This document shows, in pieces, positions 3,192 through 59,869 of a stretch of 60,388 nucleotides of DNA. The translations under genes and the position numbers were made by a program. The DNA comes from an uncultured Enterobacteriaceae bacterium (lineage in GTDB: Bacteria; Pseudomonadota; Gammaproteobacteria; Burkholderiales; SG8-39). Numbering within the stretch: the stretch's first letter is position 1; the number at the start of each line of letters is the position of its first letter. The stretch lies in NCBI GenBank assembly GCA_964627075.1, contig CAZVHU010000001.1, forward strand, positions 6,454-66,841. Direction: 5' to 3'. Below the pieces are notes generated by a model. That model did no database searches, was not told the origin of the DNA, and worked only from the letters and a program-made list of their open reading frames with translations.

Positions 3192-4547
<1,356 letters not shown>

Positions 4548-4548
4548 G

Positions 4549-5016
<468 letters not shown>

Positions 5017-8687: not shown

Positions 8688-9260
8688 ATGCTCATCTACC
8701 TGCACGGCTTCAACAGCTCGCCTGCGTCGCACAAGGCGATGGTGCTCAAGGCCTACCTCGCCGCGAGGGGCCTGGAGCGCGACTACGCCTGTCCGGCGCT
8801 GCCGCACCGCCCGCGCGAGGCGGTGCGCGCGATCGAGGACGAGATCGCGCGCCACGGCCGCGGCCGCGTCACGCTCGTCGGCAGCTCGCTCGGCGGCTTC
8901 TACGCGACCTGGTTCGCGGAGAAATACGCGCTGCGCGCCGTCCTGATCCAGCCCGCGATCCATCCCCACGTCGGGCTGGAGGCTTTGCTCGGCGAGCAGC
9001 AGAACCTGCACAGCGGCGAGCGCTACCAGCTGACGCGCGAGCACCTCGAGGGCTGGCGCGAGCTGGCGCTCGAGCGCGTCGATCCGGAGCGGTATCTGTT
9101 GTTGCTCGAGACGGGCGACGAGGTGCTCGATTGGCGTGAGGCGGCGCGCAAGTACGAGGGCGCGCGCATGGTGGTGCGCGACGGCGGCGACCATACGCTG
9201 CAGAGCTTTCCCGAGCACCTGCCGCGCATCCTCGCCTTCGCCGGGCTGGCGGCGCGGTGA
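8688..9260 (+). CDS. yqiA: YqiA-type esterase (alpha/beta hydrolase, UPF0227)
   Basis: 190 aa. It begins MLIYLHGFNSSPASHKA and has the nucleophile elbow GSSLGG. Confidence 0.8.
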   Translation: MLIYLHGFNSSPASHKAMVLKAYLAARGLERDYACPALPHRPREAVRAIEDEIARHGRGRVTLVGSSLGGFYATWFAEKYALRAVLIQPAIHPHVGLEALLGEQQNLHSGERYQLTREHLEGWRELALERVDPERYLLLLETGDEVLDWREAARKYEGARMVVRDGGDHTLQSFPEHLPRILAFAGLAAR

Positions 9261-9273
9261 CGCGCGCGCGGGC

Positions 9274-11157
9274 ATGAACCTTCTCTACGAGGAGGAGGGC
9301 GAGCTCAAGGTGGGCGCGGTGCTCGCGCGGAGCCCCGCCTCCTACCAGGTGCAGAGCCCGCACGGCAGGCGCTCCAAGGTGAAGGCGGCGAGCGTGCTGC
9401 TCGCCTTCGAGCGGCCCACGGGCGCCGAGCTGCTCGCGCAGGCGCGCGCCTTCGCCGAAGGGCTGGACGTCGAGTTCCTGTGGCAGTGCTGCGGCAGCGG
9501 CGAGTTCGGCTTCGAGGCGCTCGCGCGCGAGTACGTCGGCCGCGAGCCGGCCGCGGTCGAGTCCGCCGGCGTGCTGCTGAAGCTGCAGTCGGCGCCGGTC
9601 TACTTTCATCGTCGCGGCCGCGGCCGCTTTCAGGCTGCGCCCGAGGACACGCTGCGGCTGGCGCTCGCGGCGGTGGAGAAGCGAAAGCGCGTGGAGGCGC
9701 AGATCGACGCGTGGGCCGAGGCGCTTGCGCGCTCCGAGTGCCCGCGCGAGATCGCGGCGCTCAGGGACGAGCTGCTCTATGCGCCCGATCGCATGAAGCC
9801 GGAGACCAGGGCGTTCGAACGCGCCTGCAAGCAGACGGGCTCGAGCGCCGCGCGCCTGATGCAGCGCTGCGGCGAGCTGCCCGACAGCCACGCCTACCAC
9901 CTGAATCGCTTCCTGCACGAGTTCTTTCCGCGCGGCACGGGTTTTCCGCCGCACCCGCTTCCGGAGGCGGGTGCCGAACTGCCACTCGCGGAGGTCGAGG
10001 CCTTCAGCCTGGACGACATCGGCACCACCGAGATCGACGACGCGTTCTCCGTCACGCGCGTGTCGGAGGACGAGCTGCGCATCGGCATCCACATCGCCGC
10101 GCCAGCGCTCGGCTTCGCGCCGGGCTCGCCGCTGGACGCGATCGCGCGCGAGCGGCTGTCGACCGCCTACATGCCGGGCCGCAAGTTCACCATGCTGCCC
10201 GAGGACGTGATCGAGCGCCTGTCGCTCGACCACGGCAACGACCAGCCCGCGGTGTCCCTGTATCTCGACGTCAGCACGCGCGACCTCGCGGTGCGCGGGC
10301 GCCACAGCCGGCTGGAGCGCGTGCGCATCGGCGCCAACCTGCGCCATGCGACCTATGACGCACTCAACGAAGCCTTTCCTGCGGGCCGAGAAGCTGGGCT
10401 CGCCTACGAGGAGGAGCTGCGCGTGCTGTGGCGGCTCGCACTCGCGCTCGAGCGCTCGCGCGGCAAGCCGAGCGTCGCCGCGGGCATCGCGGACTACAGC
10501 TTCAGGGTGGAGGACGACCGCGTCGCGATCGAGCCGCGCAAGCGTGGCGCGCCGCTCGACAAGCTCGTCTCGGAGCTCATGATCCTCGCCAACACGACCT
10601 GGGGCGAGCTGCTCGCGGAGCGCGGCGTCGCTGCGATCTACCGCGTGCAGTCCACCGGCAAGGTGCAGCTGAGCGTGCACCCGGAGTCGCACCAGGGGCT
10701 GGGCGTGTCCTGCTACGCGTGGCTCACCTCGCCGCTGCGCCGCTACGTGGACCTCGTCAACCAGTGGCAGCTCGCGGCGGCGCTCGCCGGTCGCAGGCCG
10801 CCGTTCGCGCGCACCTCCGAGGCGCTGCTCTCGGCGCTGCGCGCCTTCGAGGTCACCTACGCGCGCTACGACGAGCACCAGCGCGCCATGGAAACCTACT
10901 GGTGCCTGCGCTGGCTGCAGCAGGAGCGCGTCGCCGAGGCCGAGGCCACGGTGCTGCGCGAGAGCCTGGTGCGCTTCGACCGCCTGCCGCTCACCGCGCG
11001 CGTGCCGTCGCTGCCGGACCTGGAGCCCGGCTCGAGGGTGCGGCTCGCCGTCGAGGAGGTCGATCTGATCGAGCGCGCGGTCCGCTGCGCCTGGCGCGCG
11101 ACGCTCGGTCGCGCGGCCGAGCCGCCGTCGGCCGCCGATGGGCAGGGGACGGCCTAA
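9274..11157 (+). CDS. RNB-domain 3'-5' exoribonuclease (RNase II family)
   Basis: The start was trimmed to the ATG at 9274 (MNLLYEEEGELK). It has the RNB motifs TEIDDAFSV and LTSPLRRYVDLVNQ. Confidence 0.85.
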   Translation: MNLLYEEEGELKVGAVLARSPASYQVQSPHGRRSKVKAASVLLAFERPTGAELLAQARAFAEGLDVEFLWQCCGSGEFGFEALAREYVGREPAAVESAGVLLKLQSAPVYFHRRGRGRFQAAPEDTLRLALAAVEKRKRVEAQIDAWAEALARSECPREIAALRDELLYAPDRMKPETRAFERACKQTGSSAARLMQRCGELPDSHAYHLNRFLHEFFPRGTGFPPHPLPEAGAELPLAEVEAFSLDDIGTTEIDDAFSVTRVSEDELRIGIHIAAPALGFAPGSPLDAIARERLSTAYMPGRKFTMLPEDVIERLSLDHGNDQPAVSLYLDVSTRDLAVRGRHSRLERVRIGANLRHATYDALNEAFPAGREAGLAYEEELRVLWRLALALERSRGKPSVAAGIADYSFRVEDDRVAIEPRKRGAPLDKLVSELMILANTTWGELLAERGVAAIYRVQSTGKVQLSVHPESHQGLGVSCYAWLTSPLRRYVDLVNQWQLAAALAGRRPPFARTSEALLSALRAFEVTYARYDEHQRAMETYWCLRWLQQERVAEAEATVLRESLVRFDRLPLTARVPSLPDLEPGSRVRLAVEEVDLIERAVRCAWRATLGRAAEPPSAADGQGTA

Positions 11158-35226: not shown

Positions 35227-36169
35227 GCCGGGCGCGAAGGAAAAGGGCGCGGCCAAGACCGCGCGCATCCCGGTGAAGATCGTGCCACGTGCGGCGCTGA
35301 AAAAGCCGCCCTGGATCCGGGTGCGGGCCGCCGCCGAGGGCTCGCGCTTCTACGACATCAAGCGCATCCTGCGCGCGCAGCGCCTGCACACCGTGTGCGA
35401 GGAAGCCTCGTGCCCGAACATCGGCGAGTGCTTCGGCAAGGGCACCGCCACGTTCATGATCCTCGGCGACGTGTGCACGCGCCGCTGCCCGTTCTGCGAC
35501 GTGGCGCACGGCCGGCCGCTTGCGCCCGACGCCGAGGAGCCGCGGCATCTCGCAGAGACGGTAGCGCGGCTGGGACTTCGCTACGTCGTCGTGACGAGCG
35601 TGGACCGCGACGACCTGAAGGACGGCGGCGCGGCGCATTTCGCAGATTGCATCCGCGAGCTGCGCGCGCGCACGCCCGGCACCACGATCGAGGTGCTGGT
35701 GCCGGACTTCCGCGGGCGCCTGGAGCGCGCGCTCGAGCCGCTCGCCGCGGCGCCGCCGGACGTCATGAACCATAACCTCGAGACCGTGCCGCGCCTTTAC
35801 CGCGCCGCGCGCCCCGGGGGCGACTACGCGCATTCGCTCGTGCTGCTGCGCGAGTTCAAGCAGCGCTGCCCCGCGGTTCCGACCAAGTCGGGATTGATGG
35901 TGGGCCTGGGCGAGCGTGACGAGGAGATCGTGCAGGTGATGCGCGACTTGCGGGCACACGGCGTGGAGATGCTCACCATCGGCCAGTACCTCGCGCCGTC
36001 GGCGCACCACCTGCCGGTCGAGCGCTACGTGCACCCGGACACCTTCGCCCTGTTCGAGCGCGAGGCCGCGGCGCTCGGCTTCAGGCACGCGGCGATCGGG
36101 CCGCTGGTGCGCTCCTCCTACCACGCCGACCGCCAGGCGCACGAGGCGGGCGTACCAGGCGCAGTGTAA
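35219..36169 (+). CDS. lipA: Lipoyl synthase
   Basis: 316 aa. It has the auxiliary cluster [12 protein letters not shown] and the radical-SAM CTRRCPFC. Its TAA stop lies inside the palindrome at 36163. Confidence 0.96.
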
Positions 36170-36185
36170 AGTCATGCTTTACACT
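36163..36185 (-). repeat. 23-bp AT-rich palindrome, copy a: AGTGTAAAG-TCATG-CTTTACACT
   Basis: Read directly, with perfect 9-bp arms. The minus orientation is assigned from the spacer consensus. Confidence 0.9.
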
Positions 36186-36899: not shown

Positions 36900-36910
36900 C
36901 TCCTCTGTCG

Positions 36911-36961
36911 TCCCCGCCTACGCGGGGAGCCACAGGCTTGGCTTCCCCGCGAAAGCGGGGA
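36911..36961. repeat. Pair of GC-rich REP-like hairpins: TCCCCGC-CTAC-GCGGGGA (36911-36928) and TCCCCGC-GAAA-GCGGGGA (36944-36961)
   Basis: Read directly. Confidence 0.8.
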
Positions 36962-36968
36962 TCCAGTC

Positions 36969-37100
36969 CTATTCGATCACCCGGTCGGCGCGCAGGAGCA
37001 GCACCTGCGGAACGGTCAGCCCGATCGCCTCGCGGCTTTTCACTCGCCGGAGTCTGCGCCTGAACCTGCGCCACGGATCGATGGGTTTCCGCAGATTGGC
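36969..37100 (-). pseudogene. 3'-terminal relic of an ABC substrate-binding-protein paralogue
   Basis: The reverse strand reads ...VKSREAIGLTVPQVLLLRADRVIE*, against ...LKTAKAIGLAVPRSVLLRADRVIE* at the end of the 37991 gene. The upstream part is degenerate and has no start codon. Confidence 0.55.
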
Positions 37101-37128
37101 GCCGTGCTTCAAGGAGTAAGATTCCGCC

Positions 37129-37386
37129 ATGCAAAAGGCTGCTGCCCGGGCATTCCTCGCGCGCGACCGGGAGCGGGTCGCCGCGCTGAAAAGGGACTAT
37201 CACGCTCGGCGTTACCGGCGGACGCGCGGCAGGTCCGGGCTGGATGCGGGGCGCTCGCTGCGGCAACTCGCCCGCTCGGTCCGGCCCGACTGGCCGACGA
37301 AACGGGACCGCGCCGAGGACCTGGCGCATCACGTGGCGCTCAAGCGCTTGCTCGACCGCGCCGCGCATGCGTTCTGCGCTCGCTGA
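37129..37386 (+). CDS. Small Arg-rich hypothetical protein, upstream partner of the nucleotidyltransferase
   Basis: 85 aa. AAGGAG lies at 37111-37116. Third codon positions are mostly G/C. It overlaps the next gene by 20 nt. I recognise no family. Confidence 0.4.
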   Translation: MQKAAARAFLARDRERVAALKRDYHARRYRRTRGRSGLDAGRSLRQLARSVRPDWPTKRDRAEDLAHHVALKRLLDRAAHAFCAR

Positions 37387-37957
37387 GGCGCTCGCCGCCC
37401 TCGGGCGGGTGCTCGGCAGGCTGCGGGTTCGCTGGTACCTCTTTGGCGCACAGGCGGCGCTGCTCTACGGCGCAGCAAGGCTCACCGCCGACATCGATGT
37501 CACGGTGCAGATCGGCGAGCGGGGAACGGCCGGCCTGGCAAGAGCGCTCGAGCAGGCCGGATTCCGGCTTCGCGTTCGCGACGTCGCCGATTTCGTGGCG
37601 AAGACCCGCGTCCTGCCCTTCGTGCACGCCCGCTCCGGGATGCCGGTCGACATCGTCCTCGCGGGGCCCGGGCCGGAGGAGCTTTTCCTCAAGCGCCGCC
37701 GCCGCCGCCAGATCGAGGGGGTCACGGTCTTCGTCGCAAGCCCCGAGGATATCGTCGTCATGAAGATGCTCGCAGGCCGAGGCAAGGACGAAGACGACAC
37801 GCTGGCGATCCTTGCTGCTCGGCCGCGCCTGAAAATCGCAAGGATCCGGTCGACTCTCGATCTGCTCGAGCGCGCGCTCGGGCAAAGCGACCTCCGGCCG
37901 CGGTTCGAACAACTGCTCGCCCGCGCCCGGCCGGCGTCGGCGCGCAAGAGAAGTTGA
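37367..37957 (+). CDS. Pol-beta-fold nucleotidyltransferase-like protein
   Basis: 196 aa from MRSALAEA. It has the NTase loop LFGAQAALLYGAARLTADIDV (G-x-...-D-x-D), a later acidic strand PVDIVL, and SPEDIVVMKMLAGRGKDEDD, which recurs in uncharacterised NTase families (DUF6036-like, from memory). Confidence 0.6.
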   Translation: MRSALAEALAALGRVLGRLRVRWYLFGAQAALLYGAARLTADIDVTVQIGERGTAGLARALEQAGFRLRVRDVADFVAKTRVLPFVHARSGMPVDIVLAGPGPEELFLKRRRRRQIEGVTVFVASPEDIVVMKMLAGRGKDEDDTLAILAARPRLKIARIRSTLDLLERALGQSDLRPRFEQLLARARPASARKRS

Positions 37958-37990
37958 AGGCAGGCGCGCGCGGGGAAGCGCCGCGGCGCG

Positions 37991-38976
37991 CTACTCGATC
38001 ACCCGGTCGGCGCGCAGCAGCACGCTCCGCGGCACGGCGAGGCCGATCGCCTTGGCGGTCTTCAGATTCACCACCATCTCGAAGCGCGACGCCTGGTCCA
38101 CGGGCAGGCCGGCGGGCTTCGTCCCTTTCAGCACCCGCGCCATCATGTCGGCCGCGCGGCGCACGTCGTCCGTGAGGCTGGTTCCCAAGGAGGTCAAGCC
38201 GCCGCGCTCGACCATCTCGGCGTCGGAGAAGATCACGGGTATGCGCTGCCGGTCCGCGGCCTCGACGATGCGCTCCCCGGTGACGGGCGAATCGGCGAAC
38301 CAGGCGTACGGCACCAGCACATCGGCGCCGGCGGCGACGGCGCCGTCGACCGTTGTATCCCAGCCGGTGCGGTCCGCGGTCACGAACTCCATCAGATCGA
38401 TCGCAAGCCGGGCGGCGGTATTTCTCAGCTCGGGCGCCAAGGCGGCGAACTCGTCCGTGTGGGTTCTGCCAACCACGGCCACACGTTTCGCCCCGGGTAA
38501 CAGCTCCCGCGCGAGTTCCAGGCGCTTGTGCAGCAATTCGCCAAACCGGTTGCTCACCCCGGTGGCGTTGCCGCCTGGCCTCGCGTAGCTTCTCACGATC
38601 CCCGCAACGACCGGGTCCGGACCCACACGAACACGATCGGCACCGACTTTCTTGCCGCGATCGCGGCCTCGGCGGCTCGCGTCGAGAAGGCCAGGATCGC
38701 ATCCGCCCCGGCGGCCACTATGCGACGCACGTACTCGCGATCATCGCTGAAATCGCCGCTCTCGGCGCGCGCGTCGATCTCGAGGTTGCGTCCCTCGACG
38801 AAGCCGTGGCCCGCGAGCCGCTCGAGGAGCGCGGCGCGGTAGCGCTCCATGCCCGGGCCGCTCGCAAGCAGCACGCCGACGCGATAGGTCCGTGCCGTCT
38901 TCTGAGCGAGCGCGATCGGTGCCGCAAGCAGCGCGCTCGCGGCGAGCAGCAGTCTGCGTCGCCGGGTGTCGCTCAA
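37991..38976 (-). pseudogene. ABC transporter substrate-binding protein (PF04392-like), frameshifted
   Basis: Two ORFs (38593-38976 and 37991-38626) join into one protein. It has a signal peptide, YRVGVL, PIVFV|VGPDPVVAGIV...ARPGGNATG, and an LKTAKAIGL tail. One nucleotide is missing near 38625. A sequencing error cannot be excluded. Confidence 0.7.
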
Positions 38977-39028
38977 GGGCCCTCCCCCCGCGTTGGGGAA
39001 AGTCTGCTCCTGAAGCTGCGGAAGATGG

Positions 39029-39048
39029 GCTCCCGTTTTCGCGGGAGC
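39029..39048. repeat. Hairpin GCTCCCG-N6-CGGGAGC just downstream of the polA stop
   Basis: Read directly. On the minus strand it reads GCTCCCGCGAAAACGGGAGC, resembling the CCCCGC-GAAA-GCGGGG family. It has no U-tract. Confidence 0.5.
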
Positions 39049-39060
39049 GACGAACCGCGG

Positions 39061-41814
39061 CTAGTGCGCCTGGTCCCAGTTGTCGCCGGCGCCGACGTCC
39101 ACCACGAGCGCCACTTCGAGCTGGGCCACGCCTTGCATCAGGGCGCGCACCCTTTGCTTCACGGTTTCGAGCTCCGTGGCAGGCGCTTCCAGCACCAGCT
39201 CGTCGTGCACCTGCATGACGAGGCGCGTCTCGAGTTTCCCGTCGCGCAGCCAGCGGTCCACCGCCACCATCGCGAGCTTGATGAGGTCGGCCGCCGTGCC
39301 CTGCATCGGCGCGTTGATCGCAGCGCGCTCTGCGGCCTGGCGGCGCCCGGGCGAGCCCGACTTCATCTCCGGCAGCCTGAGCCGCCTGCCGAACACCGTC
39401 TCGACGAAGCCGTCGTTGCGCGCGCGCTCGCGGGTCTCGTCCATGAAGCGCTTCACGCCGGGGTAGCGCGTGAAGTAGGAGTCGATGTAGGCCTGCGCGG
39501 TGGCGCGCTCGATGCCGAGGGTCTGCGCCAGGCCAAAGGAGCTCATGCCGTAGATCAGGCCGAAGTTGATCGTCTTCGCCGCGCGGCGCTCGTCGGCGCT
39601 CACCTTGTCAAGCGGCACGCCGAACACCTCGGCGGCCGTGGCGCGGTGCACGTCGTCGCCGCGCGAGAAGGCTTTTCTCAGCCCCGCATCGCCCGAGAGG
39701 TGCGCCATGATGCGCAGCTCGATCTGTGAGTAATCCGCGCTCACGATCTTCCATCCGGGGGGCGCCACGAACGCCTCGCGGATGCGCCGGCCCTGCGGCG
39801 TGCGGATCGGGATGTTCTGCAGGTTGGGGTCCGTCGAGGCGAGGCGCCCGGTGACCGCGGTCGCCTGCGAGTAGGTGGTGTGCACGCGCCCGGTGGCCGG
39901 GTTCACCATGCGCGGCAGCTTGTCGGTGTAGGTGCTCTTCAACTTCGCGAGCGCGCGGTACTCGAGCAGGATCTTCGGCAGCGGGAAGTCGAGCGCGAGC
40001 TCCGCCAGCACGTCCTCGTCGGTGGAGGGTTGTCCCGACGGCGTCTTTTTCTTCACCGGCAGCTTCTGGCGCTCGAACAGGATCTCCTGGATCTGCTTGG
40101 GTGAATTCAGGTTGAACGGCTGCCCGGCGGCGTCGTAGGCCTTCTGCTCGAGCTCCAGCATCTCCTTGCCCAGCTCGTGGCTCTGCCGCTCGAGCTGCGC
40201 CGCGTCGAGCAGCACGCCGTGGCGCTCCATGCGCAGCAGCACCGGCAGCACCGGCAGCTCGATTTCCTCGTAGACCCGCTTGAGCTTTTCGTCCGCCGCG
40301 ATGCGCGGGTACATCGCCTCGTGCAGGGCGAGGGCGCAATCGGCGTCCTCGGCGGCATACTCGGTGGCGCGCCCGATCTCGACCGCCGAGAACGAAATGC
40401 GCGCTGCGCCTTTGCCGGTCACCTCGTCGTAGGAGATGGTCCTCCAGCCGAGGTGCCGCTGCGCGAGCGAGTCGAGGTCGTGCCGCTCGTGCACTTCCAG
40501 CACGTAGGACTCGAGCAGCGTGTCGTGCGCGATGCCGGCAAGCGCGACGCCGTGGTTCGCAACGACGTGGGCGTCGAACTTGGCGTTCTGCCCGACCTTG
40601 GCGCGCGCTGCATTCTCGAGCCACGGCCGCAGCACTTCGAGCGCACGCTCTGCGCCGACTTGCCGCGGCGCGCCGGGGTACTCGTGCGCGAGCGGCAGGT
40701 AGTGCGCAGTGTCGCCGAAGGCGAAGGACATGCCCACCAGCCTCGCGCTCATCGGCTCCAGACCCGTGGTCTCGGTGTCGAAGCCCACGAGCGGCGCGCG
40801 CTCGAGCCCTGCGGCGAGCGAGCGCAGCGCGGCCTCGTCCACTACTGTTGCGTACCTGCGCCGCGCCGGCCCCTCGCCCGGCACGACCGGCGCGGATGCG
40901 CCCTCCCGCGGCATTGCCGCCACAGCCGGCGGCGCGGCGAAACGCCGCTCGCCGTCGGATGCTGCGGGCACGCCGCCTTCCAGCTCGCGCAGCCAGCTCT
41001 TGAAGCCGTGGCGCTCGAAAAGCTCCCTCAGCTTCGCGTTGTCCGGGCCGCCGTCCTGCAACCGGGCGAGCGAGGTGGCAAGTGTAAAGTCACGCTTTAC
41101 AGTGAGGAGCCTGCGGCCCCGCGGCAGCCAGTCCAGGGTCGCGCGCAGGTTTTCTCCCGCGACGCCCGGGATCTCGGCGGCGTGCGCGATCACCCCGTCG
41201 AGCGAGCCGAACTGCTGGATCCACCTTGCGGCGGTCTTGGGACCGACCTTGGGAACGCCCGGCACGTTGTCCACACTGTCGCCCACGAGCGCGAGGTAGT
41301 CGACGATCCTCTCGGGCGGCACGCCGAATTTCGCCCGCACCGCGGCCGGGTCGAGCGTCTCGTTCGACATGGTGTTGACCAGCGTCACGCTGGCGTCCAC
41401 CAGCTGCGCCAGGTCCTTGTCGCCGGTGGAGATGACGCAGCGCCAGCCGGCGCGCTTCGCTTGCTCGGCGAGCGTCGCGATGACGTCGTCGGCCTCGATG
41501 CCCTCGATCGCGAGCACCGGCCAGCCCAGCGCTGCGACGATTTCCTTCAGCGGCGCGATCTGCGCCGCGAGATCGTCGGGCATCGGCGGGCGGTTCGCCT
41601 TGTACTGCGGATATTCCTCGTCGCGGAAGGTCTTGCCCGGCGCGTCGAACACGCAGGCGCGGGCTTGCGCCTTGTAGTCGGCGGCGAGCCGCCTTAGCAT
41701 GTTGACCACGCCGTAGATCGCGCCGGTCGGCTCGCCGCGCGCATTCTTCAGCTCCGGAAGCGCGTGGAAGGCACGGTACAGGTACGACGAGCCGTCAACC
41801 AGCAGGAGAGTCTT

Positions 41815-41823
<9 letters not shown>
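39061..41823 (-). CDS. polA: DNA polymerase I
   Basis: 920 aa from the GTG at 41823 (VSHKTLLLVDGSSYLYRAFHA). It has a 5' nuclease domain, a 3'-5' exonuclease domain (VGFDTETTGL) and polymerase motifs (DYSQIELRIMAH, QVHDELV). Confidence 0.95.
41081..41103 (-). repeat. 23-bp AT-rich palindrome, copy b, inside the polA coding sequence: AGTGTAAAG-TCACG-CTTTACAGT
   Basis: Read directly, with 8/9 arm complementarity. It encodes T-V-K-R-D-F-T-L of PolA. Confidence 0.9.
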
Positions 41824-50892: not shown

Positions 50893-50915
50893 AGTGTAAA
50901 GAGTGACTTTACACT
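50893..50915 (+). repeat. 23-bp AT-rich palindrome, copy c: AGTGTAAAG-AGTGA-CTTTACACT
   Basis: Read directly, with perfect arms. It lies 87 nt upstream of the 51002 ATG. Confidence 0.9.
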
Positions 50916-51001
50916 CTGCCCGCCTGGCGCCGGCGCTCGAACCAGCTCCCGGATTGGGGCGTAGACTTTGCGGTGATTGCTCTGTAACGGAGGGCGCTGC
51001 G

Positions 51002-51992
51002 ATGCAAACCCTACGCAGGCAGCTGCTGATTGCCGCGGGCACCCTGCTCGCGACGCCACTTGCCCGCGCGCAGATATCGCCAAAGCTGCGGCGGATCGGG
51101 CACCTGCAGCTCAATCCCTATGCCGATGGCGTGCAGAAATGGTGGCTCGCAGGGCTGCAGCAAGCAGGCTACGAGCATGGAAAAAAATCTTCTGGTTGAA
51201 TGGCGTTCTGCCGAGGGCGATGCAGGGCGCCTGCCCGCCCTTGTCGATGAACTCGTGCGCCTCAACGTCGAGTTGCTCGTGGCTATTTCCAGTGACGCCG
51301 AAGATGCGGCCAAGCAGGCGTCCCGAACGATCCCCATCGTGACGTTTGGGACCACCTTTCCGATCGAGCGGGGATTGATCAAGAGCTTCGCGCGCCCGGG
51401 CGGCAACATTACCGGAACGGTCTGGTTCGTCGACCCGGAAGTCACGTTTTCAAAGCAATACCAGATCTTCAAGGACGCCGTGCCCGGCGCGAGCCGGGTG
51501 TACGCTTTGTACTATGGCGCGGATCCGGCTTTGCGATTCTGGGATAGAGCGCTTGAACGTCGCCTGGCGAAGGCGATGGGGTTGACCGTGCAGGATTTCC
51601 CGCTACACCGACCTGAGGCCGTGAAGCCGACGCTCGAGCGCATCGCTTCCAGTCGACCGGATGTGCTCTCGGTATCAGGCAATGTTCAGGCCTCTCTTGG
51701 AGCGTTCCCGGAAATCGCCGCGTTCGCTCTGCAGCATAAGCTCGTGTCGTACTCGGAAAGCGAACGCTACCCTCGTTTCGGCGGACTGCTTTCCTATGGA
51801 CCAAACTTTCTTGGCTTGCGGGAGTTCATGGTCAGCTACGTTGACAGGATCCTGCGCGGAGCCAAGGCCGCCGATCTGCCTGTCCAGCAGACGACAAAGT
51901 GGGATTTGGTGCTCAACGCCAAGACCGCTCAGGCCATCGGATTCAGGCCGCCGCCCGCGTTCATGCTGCAAGTGACGCGTCAGATCGAATGA
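51002..51992 (+). pseudogene. ABC transporter substrate-binding protein (PF04392-like) paralogue, frameshifted in an A7 run
   Basis: The ORFs 50903-51199 (from the Met at 51002) and 51030-51992 join if the A7 at 51181-51187 is read as A6: ...AGYEHGK|NLLVEWRSAEGD.... It has a signal peptide, IPIVTFG, ARPGGNITG, and an LNAKTAQAIGF tail. It is visibly less GC-rich than its neighbours. Confidence 0.7.
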
Positions 51993-52036
51993 AGCGTCGG
52001 GCAATCGACGTGCTCGCAGTGGACGCGGGCAGGCAA

Positions 52037-52059
52037 AGTGTAATGCGTGGCTTTACACA
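52037..52059 (+). repeat. 23-bp AT-rich palindrome, copy d (degenerate): AGTGTAATG-CGTGG-CTTTACACA
   Basis: Read directly, with 7/9 arm complementarity. It lies 45 nt downstream of the 51992 stop. Confidence 0.8.
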
Positions 52060-57633: not shown

Positions 57634-58050
57634 ATGCTCCTCGTCAAGTCGCTGCACATCGTCTTCATGGTGACCTGGTTCGCGGGGCTTTTCTACCTGC
57701 CGCGGCTTTTCGTCTACCACTCGCTCGCCGAGGACCGCATCTCCATCGAGCGCTTCAAGGTCATGGAGAGAAAGCTCTTCTGGGGCATCACGACCCCGGG
57801 CGGCGTGCTGGCGCTCGCCTTCGGCGTCTGGCTGTGGCTCGGCTGGTTTCCCGGCGCCGGCGGCTGGCTCCATGCCAAGCTCGCGCTCGCCGCGGCGCTC
57901 GCCGGCTACCACCTCTGGTGCGGCAAGCTGATGCTCGAGTTCCGCAACGAGCGCAACACCCGCAGCCACGTCTGGCTGCGCTGGTTCAACGAGTTCCCGG
58001 TGCTGGTGCTGTTCGGCGCGGTGTTCCTGGTTGTCTACAAGCCCTTCTGA
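57634..58050 (+). CDS. hemJ: HemJ-type protoporphyrinogen oxidase (UPF0093/CopD-like)
   Basis: 138 aa from MLLVKSLHIVFMVTWFAGLFYLPRLFVYH, a typical HemJ N-terminus. Confidence 0.8.
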   Translation: MLLVKSLHIVFMVTWFAGLFYLPRLFVYHSLAEDRISIERFKVMERKLFWGITTPGGVLALAFGVWLWLGWFPGAGGWLHAKLALAAALAGYHLWCGKLMLEFRNERNTRSHVWLRWFNEFPVLVLFGAVFLVVYKPF

Positions 58051-59230
58051 GGCGTTCTTCGCCCCGTGCCCGCGGGGCCTGGAGCAGCTGCTCGCGGGCG
58101 AGCTCGGCGCGCTCGGCGCGCGCCATGCCGCCGCGGTGCCGGGGGGCGTCGCGTTCGCCGGCAACTGGGAAGCCTGCTACCGCGCCAATCTCTGGTCGCG
58201 CGTCGCCTCGCGCGTGCTGTGGCGCGTGGCGCAATTCGACTACGCGAGCGAGACCGACCTCTACGAAGCCGCCCGGGCCGTCGACTGGCCGGCGCTCTTT
58301 TCGGTCGCGCGCACGATCCGCGTCTACGTCACGGCGCAGAAGAGCCCGCTCAGGAGCCTCGAGTTCGCCACCCTCAAGGTGAAGGACGCGGTCTGCGACC
58401 GCTTCCGCGACGCGCAGGGCCGCCGCCCCAGCGTGGACCGCGCCGCGCCCGAGGTGCGCGTGCACGCGTTCCTCGAGGAAGAGCGCGCCACGCTCTACCT
58501 GGACACCTCGGGCGAGCCGCTCTTCAAGCGCGGCGCGCGCGCAGACACGGTAAGAGCGCCGCTGCGCGAGAACCTCGCGGCGGGGATCGTGCTGCTGTCG
58601 CGCTGGCAGCCCGGCGAGCCGCTGCTCGACCCGATGTGCGGCGGCGCGACGCTGCTTGCCGAGGCCGCGGCGATCGGCCGCGGCCGCGCGCCGGGCCTGA
58701 AGCGCGCCTTCGGCTTCGAGAAGCTCGCCGGGTTCCAGCCGGCGCTCTGGAAGCGGCTGCGCGAGGAGGCTGCGCACCCCGCGAAGAGCGCCGTGAAGCT
58801 CGAGCTCTACGGCTCCGACACCGACGAGCGCGCGCTCGCCGCCGCGCGCCGCAACCTCGCCGCGGCAGGAGTGGAGCGCTGGGTGCGCCTGGAGCGCGCC
58901 GACGTGCTCGAGCGCACTGCGCCCGCGCCCGCCGGGGTGATGATCGCCAACCCGCCCTACGGCGAGCGCACCGGCGCGCGCGAAGACCTCGCCCGCTTCT
59001 ACCCGAGGCTCGGGGACGCTCTGAAGAAGAACTTCGCCGGCTGGCGCTGCCACGTCTTCACCGCCGACCCGCGGCTGCCGAAGCTGATACGCCTGGAGCC
59101 CGCGCGGCGCGTGCCGCTGTGGAACGGCGCGCTCGAGTGCCGCCTCTACGAGTTCAGGATCGTCGCCGGCTCGCACCGCGGCCGCGCGCGGGGCGGCGGG
59201 GCGCAGCAGGCCGAAACGCGGCAACTGTAA
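58031..59230 (+). CDS. THUMP-domain class I SAM-dependent RNA methyltransferase (RlmL N-terminal-half-like)
   Basis: 399 aa with a TTG start overlapping hemJ. It has FFAPCPRGLE, DPMCGGATLL and NPPYGER. Its TAA stop lies in the left arm of the palindrome at 59224. Confidence 0.8.
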   Translation: MSTSPSEAFFAPCPRGLEQLLAGELGALGARHAAAVPGGVAFAGNWEACYRANLWSRVASRVLWRVAQFDYASETDLYEAARAVDWPALFSVARTIRVYVTAQKSPLRSLEFATLKVKDAVCDRFRDAQGRRPSVDRAAPEVRVHAFLEEERATLYLDTSGEPLFKRGARADTVRAPLRENLAAGIVLLSRWQPGEPLLDPMCGGATLLAEAAAIGRGRAPGLKRAFGFEKLAGFQPALWKRLREEAAHPAKSAVKLELYGSDTDERALAAARRNLAAAGVERWVRLERADVLERTAPAPAGVMIANPPYGERTGAREDLARFYPRLGDALKKNFAGWRCHVFTADPRLPKLIRLEPARRVPLWNGALECRLYEFRIVAGSHRGRARGGGAQQAETRQL

Positions 59231-59246
59231 AGGCAGACTTTACACT
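59224..59246 (+). repeat. 23-bp AT-rich palindrome, copy e: ACTGTAAAG-GCAGA-CTTTACACT
   Basis: Read directly, with 8/9 arm complementarity. It spans the 9-nt gap between two convergent genes. Confidence 0.9.
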
Positions 59247-59869
59247 TCGGCCCGTGGCGCCTGCCGGCGAAACACGAGGCTGAAGTTGTTCGCCGGCATG
59301 GCGACCGTCTCCTCGAGCGCGAGGCCCGCGCCGGCCGCGAGCCCGGCGACCGCCTCCATGTCGCGCACGCCCCAGCGCGGGTGCTGCGCGCGCAAGCTCG
59401 CGTCGAAGCGCTCGTTGCTCGGCGCGGTGTGCGCACCAAAGCGGCGATAGGGCCCGTAGAGGAAGAGTATCCCGCCAGGCGGCAGCACGCGCCGCGCGCC
59501 CTCTACGAGCGCTTGCGCCGTGCTCCACGGCGCGATGTGCACGAGGTTGATGGCGAGCACGGCGTCGGCGGCGGCGACCGGCCAGGGCAGGCGCTCGACG
59601 TCGAGCTCGATGGGCGCGGCGACGTTCGCCAGCCCTTCGGCGGCGATCCAGGCGGCGATCGAGCGGCGCATCGCCGGGTCGAGCTCGCTGGGCTGCCAGC
59701 GCCACGCGGGCAGCGCGCGCGCAAAGTGCACCACGTGCTGCCCGGTGCCGCTCGCGATCTCGAGCGCAAGGCCGCTCGCCGGCAGCGCCCGCCGCAGGAC
59801 TTCGAGTATCGGCCCCTTGTTGCGCTCTGCTGAAGGCGCGCAGGCGCCGGGACACTGCGTGCCGCTCAC
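59240..59869 (-). CDS. DUF938-like SAM-dependent methyltransferase
   Basis: 209 aa. It has AERNKGPILEVLRR and LEIASGTGQHVVHFA. Its TAA stop lies in the right arm of the palindrome. Confidence 0.75.
   Translation of the reverse strand: MSGTQCPGACAPSAERNKGPILEVLRRALPASGLALEIASGTGQHVVHFARALPAWRWQPSELDPAMRRSIAAWIAAEGLANVAAPIELDVERLPWPVAAADAVLAINLVHIAPWSTAQALVEGARRVLPPGGILFLYGPYRRFGAHTAPSNERFDASLRAQHPRWGVRDMEAVAGLAAGAGLALEETVAMPANNFSLVFRRQAPRAEV

Follow-up and report, generated by a model that had tools for sequence, protein, structure and literature searches.

An in-frame palindrome in polA of an uncultured Burkholderiales-type bacterium: a probable core-only member of a dispersed repeat family with TRIT- and REP-like placement

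Repetitive extragenic palindromic (REP) elements occur in hundreds of extragenic copies per genome, and those within about 15 nt of a stop codon reportedly affect translation termination and tagging by transfer-messenger RNA (tmRNA), as Liang and Deutscher are said to have found in 2015. The DNA uptake sequences (DUS) of Neisseria and the uptake signal sequences (USS) of Haemophilus can also be paired, forming hairpins after genes. In the part of its description drawn on here, the Tuberculosis Rho-independent terminator motif (TRIT; Gardner et al. 2011, NAR 39:5845, PMC3152330) comprises 147 palindromic copies at about -8 from the stop codon, is restricted to Mycobacterium, and was proposed by its authors to depend on a protein cofactor. 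Here we examine a palindrome lying in frame within polA, the gene of DNA polymerase I, in a 60,388-nt stretch of DNA (hereafter the window) from an uncultured bacterium (contig CAZVHU010000001.1). The polA site is very probably a core-only member of a lineage-specific family of dispersed palindromes, held by purifying selection that acts on the nucleic acid and not on the protein. The gene and the site are as follows.

39061 to 41823, minus strand: polA coding sequence, 920 aa, with 5'-nuclease, 3'-5' exonuclease and polymerase domains (from translation, Pfam and homologues)
41081 to 41103, minus strand: core-only in-frame palindrome copy in polA, ACTGTAAAG-CGTGA-CTTTACACT; base 41080 completes eight codons

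On the minus strand from 41103 to 41080 the site reads ACT GTA AAG CGT GAC TTT ACA CTT and encodes TVKRDFTL, residues 241-248 of the 920 in PolA. The palindrome itself (41103..41081, minus strand) is ACTGTAAAGCGTGACTTTACACT, with 7-bp arms TGTAAAG/CTTTACA around a 5-nt centre; at its ends bases 1 and 23 are paired, with a C/C mismatch just inside them between bases 2 and 22. The product, read from VSHKTLLLVDG, was identified as DNA polymerase I by homologue search, and its Pfam domains are 5_3_exonuc_N (aa 5-167), 5_3_exonuc (aa 168-261), the 3'-5' exonuclease (324-507) and the polymerase (542-917). TVKRDFTL falls in the C-terminal SAM-fold part of the 5'-nuclease domain (5_3_exonuc), where it was aligned to 'KVRTDLPL' of Taq polymerase and to 'LIRDVPLP' of 6vde, the best-matching solved Pol I, as well as to what we take to be the E. 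coli sequence, 'TIKTDVEL'. An initial sequence-only reading of this DNA, made without database searches, had described the palindrome, its frame and its codons correctly, but had placed it in a linker between the two nuclease domains; it lies within the first of them, and the 3'-5' exonuclease begins only at aa 324.

The codons of the site are unusual for the gene, as that reading had also proposed. The G+C content at third codon positions (GC3) of polA is 0.914, and six of the eight codons at the palindrome end in A or T, each accounting for 3-8% of its amino acid's codons in polA (ACT 3/44, GTA 2/71, CGT 4/76, TTT 2/26, ACA 2/44 and CTT 5/97). Five or more A/T-ending codons within eight consecutive codons were found only in three overlapping runs at the palindrome; elsewhere in polA the maximum was four.

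The window's PolA sits in a tight clade of uncultured Burkholderiales-type bacteria, based on homologues and a neighbour-joining (NJ) tree, and DNA from six independent members of this clade, near-duplicates apart, was compared. Every relative with a PolA 84-88% identical to that of the window carries the identical 24 nt (L151, L150/L079, L153, L154 and L155; L numbers are our locus labels), at polA nucleotide identities of 83-86% to the window and 89-93% to one another. The codons flanking the site vary (CTC/CTG, CTC/CTG/TTG, GCC/GCG and ACC/CTC/AAC/GTC/GTT/GCC), only 53% of third positions across polA are invariant in this set, and just 10 of the 73 other A/T-ending codons of the window's polA are identical in all relatives, so that the chance of six such codons surviving together is about 7e-6. 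The synonymous conservation that the sequence-only reading had suggested looking for is thus present at all eight codons in six independent close relatives. Since the site has remained unchanged from before the lineage diversified, it is very probably under purifying selection on the nucleic acid, beyond what the protein requires. The same reading had offered selection or recent introduction as the two options; selection on the DNA is supported, while the copy is evidently not recent but old, predating the split of lineages whose polA genes are 83-86% nucleotide-identical. Half of the ten other conserved A/T-ending codons lie among the first 60 codons of the gene (codons 19, 26, 34, 44 and 60, at about 41640-41770), a clustering near the start of polA that suggests a separate selection on the mRNA 5' end.

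More distant relatives reveal how the site was probably assembled. In 31 polA loci of 70-79% identity the corresponding codons are ACS GTG AAG CGC GAY GTS nnn CTG, encoding TVKRDV[AEP]L, and two loci of about 78% identity (L152 and L156) have ACG GTG AAG/AAA CGC GAC TTT GCG CTT. The palindrome is absent at the polA site in all of these, the outgroups using preferred codons. Of the best 120 PolA proteins, only those of the window's clade have TVKRDFTL. The ancestral sequence already agreed with about 16 of the 24 bases, centred on AAG CGC GAC, and by this comparison the polA palindrome arose in place, with no change of length. Every free synonymous position is the family consensus base, including the loop centre in CGT and the 3' flanking T in CTT. 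Phe and Thr are, on the same evidence, derived residues, Val having been replaced by Phe and Ala, Glu or Pro by Thr to spell the right arm CTTTACA. Because the distant genes encode TVKRDV[AEP]L without a palindrome, the protein appears to have changed to fit the DNA. The idea that the DNA element is independent of the protein therefore stands only in part: six rare synonymous choices were kept, but two amino acids were altered. The single deviation of the left arm, C and not G at base 2, follows from the retention of Thr, since G would give Ser.

The polA copy is one of five in the window; the other four are listed here.

36163 to 36185, no strand assigned: extragenic copy AGTGTAAAGTCATGCTTTACACT, whose left arm contains the stop codon of lipA, TAA (36167-36169)
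50893 to 50915, no strand assigned: extragenic copy AGTGTAAAGAGTGACTTTACACT; ubiB ends 300 nt before it and an ABC substrate-binding gene begins about 115 nt beyond it
52037 to 52059, no strand assigned: degenerate copy AGTGTAATGCGTGGCTTTACACA with 2 mismatches, 45 nt after the ABC substrate-binding gene (51030-51992); nhmmer E = 6e-11
59224 to 59246, no strand assigned: copy between convergent genes, with the TAA of an RlmL-like gene (58031-59230, plus strand) in the left arm and the TAA of a DUF938 gene (59240-59869, minus strand) in the right arm

The pattern TGTAAAG-N5-CTTTACA thus occurs at 36163, 41081, 50893, 52037 and 59224, compared with 0 copies in 100 shuffles, and all nine TGTAAAG heptamers of the window sit within family copies. 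A hidden Markov model (HMM) of the family, run with nhmmer, recovered these five copies and detected no degenerate copy within the window's first 36 kb. The family core is A-AGTGTAAAG-TCACR-CTTTACACT-T, with arms of 7-9 bp and a fixed 5-nt centre. A search for perfect 9-5-9 copies, made with one genome per species, returned at least 57 among the matches listed for the related metagenome-assembled genome (MAG) CAYMVA01, a figure that is a lower bound, and in 433 kb of that genome 125 of 127 TGTAAAG heptamers are paired in the 7-5-7 arrangement. The family is on the order of 100 copies per genome. The possibility of a one-off without a genome-wide family, which the sequence-only reading had left standing against itself, is thereby removed. 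CAYMVA01 (L001-L077), a GTDB representative titled 'uncultured Enterobacteriaceae bacterium', has 68% GC, and its PolA is 97% identical in amino acids to close relatives of the window's PolA, placing it in the same PolA clade; because of this GC content and this identity to Burkholderiales-type homologues, its 'Enterobacteriaceae' label looks wrong.

Within the family, conservation is concentrated at the tip of the hairpin rather than at the base of its stem. The loop is TCACG/CGTGA in 23 of 64 copies and TCACA/TGTGA in a further 11, others being one or two changes off, and in about 98% of copies an A or a T stands at its centre. Extragenic members, 61 of which were aligned, share a weak, symmetric and GC-rich flank consensus, gcGGGgcgCAGcgaGGCAA - core - TTGCCgcgCTGcgcCCCgc, about 60 nt overall. 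Paired flank columns are complementary no more than column composition predicts when partners are shuffled, and swapping right flanks between copies did not reduce predicted stability (-28.8 versus -30.2 kcal/mol). Flank complementarity is a property of the shared consensus, through common descent or a sequence-level preference, and not of copy-specific pairing.

Measured against this family, the polA copy has 22 of the 23 core bases and also the flanking T on the 3' side, and its loop CGTGA is the commonest family loop, reversed. Its flanks score -5.4 with a position weight matrix (PWM), compared with a family mean of +14.6 and a background of -16.6, which is only in the top 6% of background, and the family HMM matched 41072-41103 in polA, that is, the core and a few left-flank bases. 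The copy is core only (23-25 nt), without the symmetric GC-rich flanks (GGCAA...TTGCC, GGG...CCC) of the family. An extragenic-type repeat had been described as intact inside polA; the core is intact, but the roughly 60-nt extragenic form is not there. At codons 241-248 of 920 it is also not near a gene end, unlike most family copies.

Gene ends are where most of the family sits. When gene ends were called with a GC3-based open reading frame filter, 45 of 71 distinct copies (about 63%) had one no more than 80 nt upstream; 15 of these copies stand between convergent genes. The TAA of the arm (GTG TAA AG) is itself the stop codon at 17 of 60 such gene ends, and at the others a distance of 2-72 nt, mostly no more than about 45 nt, separates the gene end from the core downstream. 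The copy at 59224 gives stop codons to both the RlmL-like and DUF938 genes, 9 nt apart, and the orthologous arrangement is present in CAYMVA01 (L041). The lipA 3' copy has orthologues in L079, L150, L151 and L155 but none in L152 and L156; a putative DUF4197 start ATG (36208) follows the window's copy by 22 nt.

In L152 and L156 no family copy was found in 32 kb, the lipA 3' end included. The pair was considered as a sister clade that had lost the motif, since it shares TTT and CTT at the polA site with the motif-bearing clade, but the NJ tree gives no sister placement; the polA site of the pair may be a decayed or an incipient one. The motif-free locus L152 carries PIN/PhdYeFM and HEPN/nucleotidyltransferase toxin-antitoxin pairs (4211-4854 and 8923-9634) between genes of the lipA-dacC region, and one of these insertions is at the lipA 3' end, the position of the palindrome in the motif-bearing clade.

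In-frame coding copies are few, 3 of the 60 examined (about 5%), and are those in polA, pgi (L017) and mnmC (L037), all of which read as x-V-K-x-x-F-T-L. The pgi copy, AGT GTA AAG CGT GAC TTT ACA, is kept in CAYMVA01 and in two relatives (L158, 83% protein identity; L157, 77%), with its peptide found in two further homologues; a 70% homologue (L159) has GGC GAC CGC GCG there, three codons shorter, and other homologues have unrelated short loops. The mnmC copy, AGT GTA AAG YCA CGC TTT ACA, is present in CAYMVA01, L163 (85%) and L162 (80%), and 117 more distant homologues have RW-RGRRA-FTI. In L162 GCT CAT comes after the palindrome, ahead of the native TTC ACC ATC, and the gene is 12 nt longer. 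Judged from these alignments, embedding within genes is lineage-wide and not specific to polA.

Three other explanations were weighed. It could be supposed that a cluster of rare codons slows translation near the end of the 5'-nuclease domain and aids folding, the resemblance to the repeat being incidental; six rare codons do lie near the domain end, and conservation extends to several further rare codons towards the 5' end of polA. However, a pause would not need these particular codons, and yet the 24 nt agree with a 25-nt genome-wide consensus at every free position, two amino acids were altered to complete the palindrome, and the same sequence recurs in pgi and mnmC, so that this explanation is effectively refuted by the family match.

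It is improbable, although a better candidate than a pause, that the family is a selfish mobile palindrome of the REP/REPIN or miniature inverted-repeat transposable element (MITE) kind (REPINs being REP doublets), moved by a REP-associated tyrosine transposase (RAYT), HUH or other transposase, with the core as recognition hairpin and the genic copies as chance in-frame insertions. The common flank consensus of the extragenic copies implies duplicative spread, the copies are extragenic, biased to 3' ends and restricted to one lineage, accessory genes are bracketed by two copies (window 50.9-52.1 kb; L071), and the pgi copy (+9 nt) and that in L162 mnmC (+12 nt, with the native TTC ACC ATC kept) are insertion-like. 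The polA copy was not inserted on this evidence, since it shows no length change and keeps 16 of 24 ancestral bases, and orthologous copies, genic as well as extragenic, remain intact over 14-17% nucleotide divergence, which would be unexpected without host constraint. Moreover, the family has no GTAG/GGAG head, REPIN doublets, terminal inverted repeats or target duplications, and no RAYT was detected by tblastn in about 0.5 Mb of lineage DNA, a weak test with an E. coli RAYT sequence as query.

A molecular drive of the DNA-uptake type, in which a receptor or recombination bias favours DNA with the motif and copies accumulate in place by substitution, tolerant genic positions included, would fit the in-situ origin in polA with changes at tolerant residues, the conservation between orthologues and the copies downstream of genes. 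All three features are known for Neisseria DUS and Haemophilus USS. We consider such a drive very improbable here, because there are only about 100 copies, about 5% of them in coding DNA, the arms never occur singly, and the 60-nt flank consensus together with the length changes in pgi and mnmC is unlike an accumulation of point mutations.

Our favoured explanation, to which we would give a probability of roughly 0.6 as a whole, joins family membership to a TRIT/REP-like function. A putative sequence-specific factor would read the core, whether in the form of a 23-bp duplex to which a dimer binds or in that of a hairpin in RNA or single-stranded DNA. At gene termini the element would act as a TRIT/REP-like hairpin that is bidirectional at transcript ends, protects 3' ends or is coupled to translation termination, read-through being tolerated, and the copies in polA, pgi and mnmC would be retained because the same factor acts there. 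A sequence-specific reader is preferred to a generic hairpin because the arms are invariant without compensatory variants and the centre is constrained. A transcript-level role at gene termini is favoured because the positional pattern parallels TRIT and resembles REP, although we put forward a function at the level of the transcript only tentatively, as somewhat short of an even chance.

Several observations weigh against this explanation. On the mRNA strand, the hairpin at the polA site has little stability by itself (-8.1 kcal/mol, z = -1.0), and a terminator-like element in three housekeeping genes should be selected against, not kept. At least seven copies, including that between lipA and DUF4197 in the window, lie between co-directional genes whose next start codon is 6-65 nt beyond the element, so that read-through must occur and an efficient terminator is impossible. 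The loop orientation relative to the upstream transcript, at 20:10, is not significant. No compensatory variation was found in the arms among copies and, as the flank complementarity comes from the consensus, no sign of an RNA structure, as opposed to a duplex site, emerged. No reader protein was found for the palindrome. Finally, pgi gained 9 nt, and one mnmC lineage gained 12 nt and kept its native FTI codons; these changes look like pasted-in DNA rather than stepwise selection. It is conceivable, though on balance unlikely, that the 21-23 nt palindrome is the recognition unit of a putative lineage machinery that either pastes the motif into new sites, open reading frames included, or binds it with effects so strong that codon usage and protein sequence give way to the motif in at least three housekeeping genes. 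The motif would then be a genome-wide cis-code above the protein code and not a passive repeat, a proposition we regard as equally speculative.

The main rival to the favoured explanation is that the core is a double-stranded DNA site of a dimeric helix-turn-helix (HTH) protein, such as a nucleoid or chromosome organiser or a global regulator, dispersed on a small mobile palindromic element, with genic sites selected like parS and matS. The arms are conserved in sequence beyond complementarity, half-sites never stand alone and keep a fixed spacing (125/127 in 433 kb of the MAG), both orientations relative to transcription occur, the central A or T (about 98%) is preserved through the synonymous codon CGT in every polA and pgi copy, and a genic location would be harmless. 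In addition, the same 9-5-9 palindrome stands in operator position beside higB-higA or a MerR-family gene in other phyla, which argues that HTH dimers can read it. What such a site would not lead one to expect is the bias to gene 3' ends and convergent intergenic regions and the overlap with stop codons, unless this reflects only tolerance of insertion, nor would a symmetric dimer impose the asymmetric loop (CAC in 46 of 61 copies). Homologues of HigA, HigB, MerR and the reductase mentioned below were not found in about 0.5 Mb of lineage DNA. We consider the HTH site doubtful, though the strongest of the alternatives to the favoured explanation.

The occurrences in other phyla are of interest in their own right. 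The palindrome AGTGTAAAG-N5-CTTTACACT lies 5-40 nt upstream of higB-higA in Rheinheimera and relatives (L008, L010, L022, L032, L040, L062 and L078), a Comamonadaceae MAG (L059) and a Bacteroidota MAG (L069); HigA and HigB across these lineages are only 33-38% identical, and the palindrome there is probably the HigA operator. It also occurs in Polyangia, Myxococcales and Campylobacterota (L028 at 2402-2424 and 3547-3569, L021, L005, L029 and L063), there next to a homologous MerR-family regulator, the Myxococcota loci L028 and L021 having a PaaE-like FAD/NAD/2Fe-2S reductase there too. The Polyangia site carries a GCAA...TTGC extension, as in the Burkholderiales family consensus.

Three conventional signals were considered for the element and rejected. 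TTTACA resembles a -35 promoter hexamer, but no -10 hexamer stands at 16-18 nt in the copies inspected or in the consensus, and a promoter scan of 34-54 kb returned one site, unrelated to the copies. A canonical intrinsic terminator was set aside because no T run follows the element in the consensus and none of the four copies in 34-54 kb was called by a terminator scan; nor does the window show any enrichment of canonical hairpin-plus-U terminators (7 found, 8.8 expected). Both alternative frames stop within the palindrome (CTG TAA; GCG TGA), as a programmed frameshift might use, but there is no slippery heptamer. A scan of the whole window with Rfam 15 at gathering thresholds gave no match, and a literature search on the arm sequences returned only unrelated primers and constructs.

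Isolated matches were also found elsewhere. A scan of a viral collection gave two, neither informative on the family: a hairpin after a large phage structural gene, and a site upstream of a 543-aa putative Ro60/TROVE-like gene. In two paralogues of a Lentisphaerae MAG (L073, 3767-3789 and 4807-4829) the 18-nt pattern falls on the prepilin-type N-terminal cleavage/methylation motif (GFTLIELLVV), where it encodes SVKHGFTL, a coding coincidence. Another Betaproteobacteria MAG of 67% GC (L014, 2475-2497) has one perfect copy, apparently genic, in the other open frame (C-K-x-x-L-Y-T), which may be due to chance, to a separate acquisition or to a wider distribution of the family.

Some copies lie next to gene content that varies. 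The ABC substrate-binding gene of the window (51030-51992) is in a stretch of lower GC (65% versus about 71%) with a family copy on each side (50893-52059); at the same place L154 has a TPMT gene between ubiB and an SSF transporter. In CAYMVA01 a GNAT gene (L071, 3002-3457) is bracketed by two copies (2796 and 3657). Family elements may mark the boundaries of accessory-gene insertions. The junction between DUF4197 and the polA 3' end (window 36900-39060) is variable among relatives as well, holding an AbiEii-like nucleotidyltransferase reading frame (37244-37957) and one further, unassigned reading frame in the window, an ABC substrate-binding gene in L150 and a 1106-aa cyclase/AAA/TPR gene in L156, and being empty in L151 and L155.

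Dispersed palindromes at gene ends (REP, TRIT) and motifs that shape coding sequence (USS/DUS, highly iterated palindrome 1 (HIP1), Rickettsia palindromic elements (RPE), parS in genes) are kinds already known. What is new is the palindrome family itself, which belongs to an uncultured lineage and often supplies the stop codon of one or both convergent genes, and, above all, core-only copies that are letter-perfect in three housekeeping genes whose proteins were altered to carry them. They provide a clean natural case in which selection for a nucleic-acid motif prevails over both codon bias and amino-acid sequence in essential genes, three times in one lineage, and the family defines a new TRIT/REP-like gene-terminus element in uncultured Burkholderiales-type bacteria. 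Core-only genic copies also separate the recognised unit (23-25 nt) from its repeat context, offering a precise bait for the reader protein and precise synonymous mutations. For annotation they carry a warning that a cluster of rare codons, or an odd lineage-specific residue in a conserved protein, can be the footprint of an overlapping cis-element.

Among known systems, Neisseria DUS, Haemophilus USS and cyanobacterial HIP1 are likewise short motifs in coding sequence, conserved between orthologues and shaping codon and amino-acid choice. They are, however, 8-12 nt long, present in thousands of mostly genic and mostly single copies, whereas the element here is an obligate 23-nt palindrome in about 100 copies, 95% of them extragenic. 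RPE resemble it as palindromic repeats that lie in frame in protein genes without destroying them, but they are insertions of 100-150 bp that add a peptide, while the 21-24 nt here take the place of a segment of the same or slightly smaller length, and no insertion was involved in polA. With parS in spo0J and with matS the family has in common that palindromes are kept in coding sequence by selection at the DNA level; those protein-binding sites have few copies, are placed according to chromosome domain, and show neither a stop-codon preference nor a 60-nt repeat context.

The closest likenesses are to REP elements and TRIT. REP, bacterial interspersed mosaic elements (BIME) and REPINs of Enterobacteria and Pseudomonas are, like this family, short imperfect palindromes, extragenic, located after genes or between convergent genes, within and at the ends of operons, and lineage-specific. 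The family differs in having no GTAG/GGAG head (from the consensus of 61 copies) and no REPIN doublets and in being most conserved at the hairpin tip, not at the stem base, and we know of no REP counterpart to its conserved in-frame copies. TRIT, as far as the part of its description used here extends (PMC3152330), differs in sequence and phylum (Burkholderiales-type Betaproteobacteria here); the core here is AT-rich, and conserved in-frame copies in mid-gene, found here, are not mentioned for TRIT in that part. Termination could be attributed to the present family only by analogy with TRIT as described there, and it cannot be efficient at operon-internal copies. Within the same limits, both are sequence-conserved palindromes in about 100-150 copies in a GC-rich genome poor in canonical terminators, and in both, sequence conservation suggests a protein cofactor. 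Both also sit at gene termini, mostly bidirectionally, in a narrow position overlapping the end of the coding sequence, with the stop codon here lying in the arm, a likeness to TRIT that we would treat as analogy and not as membership.

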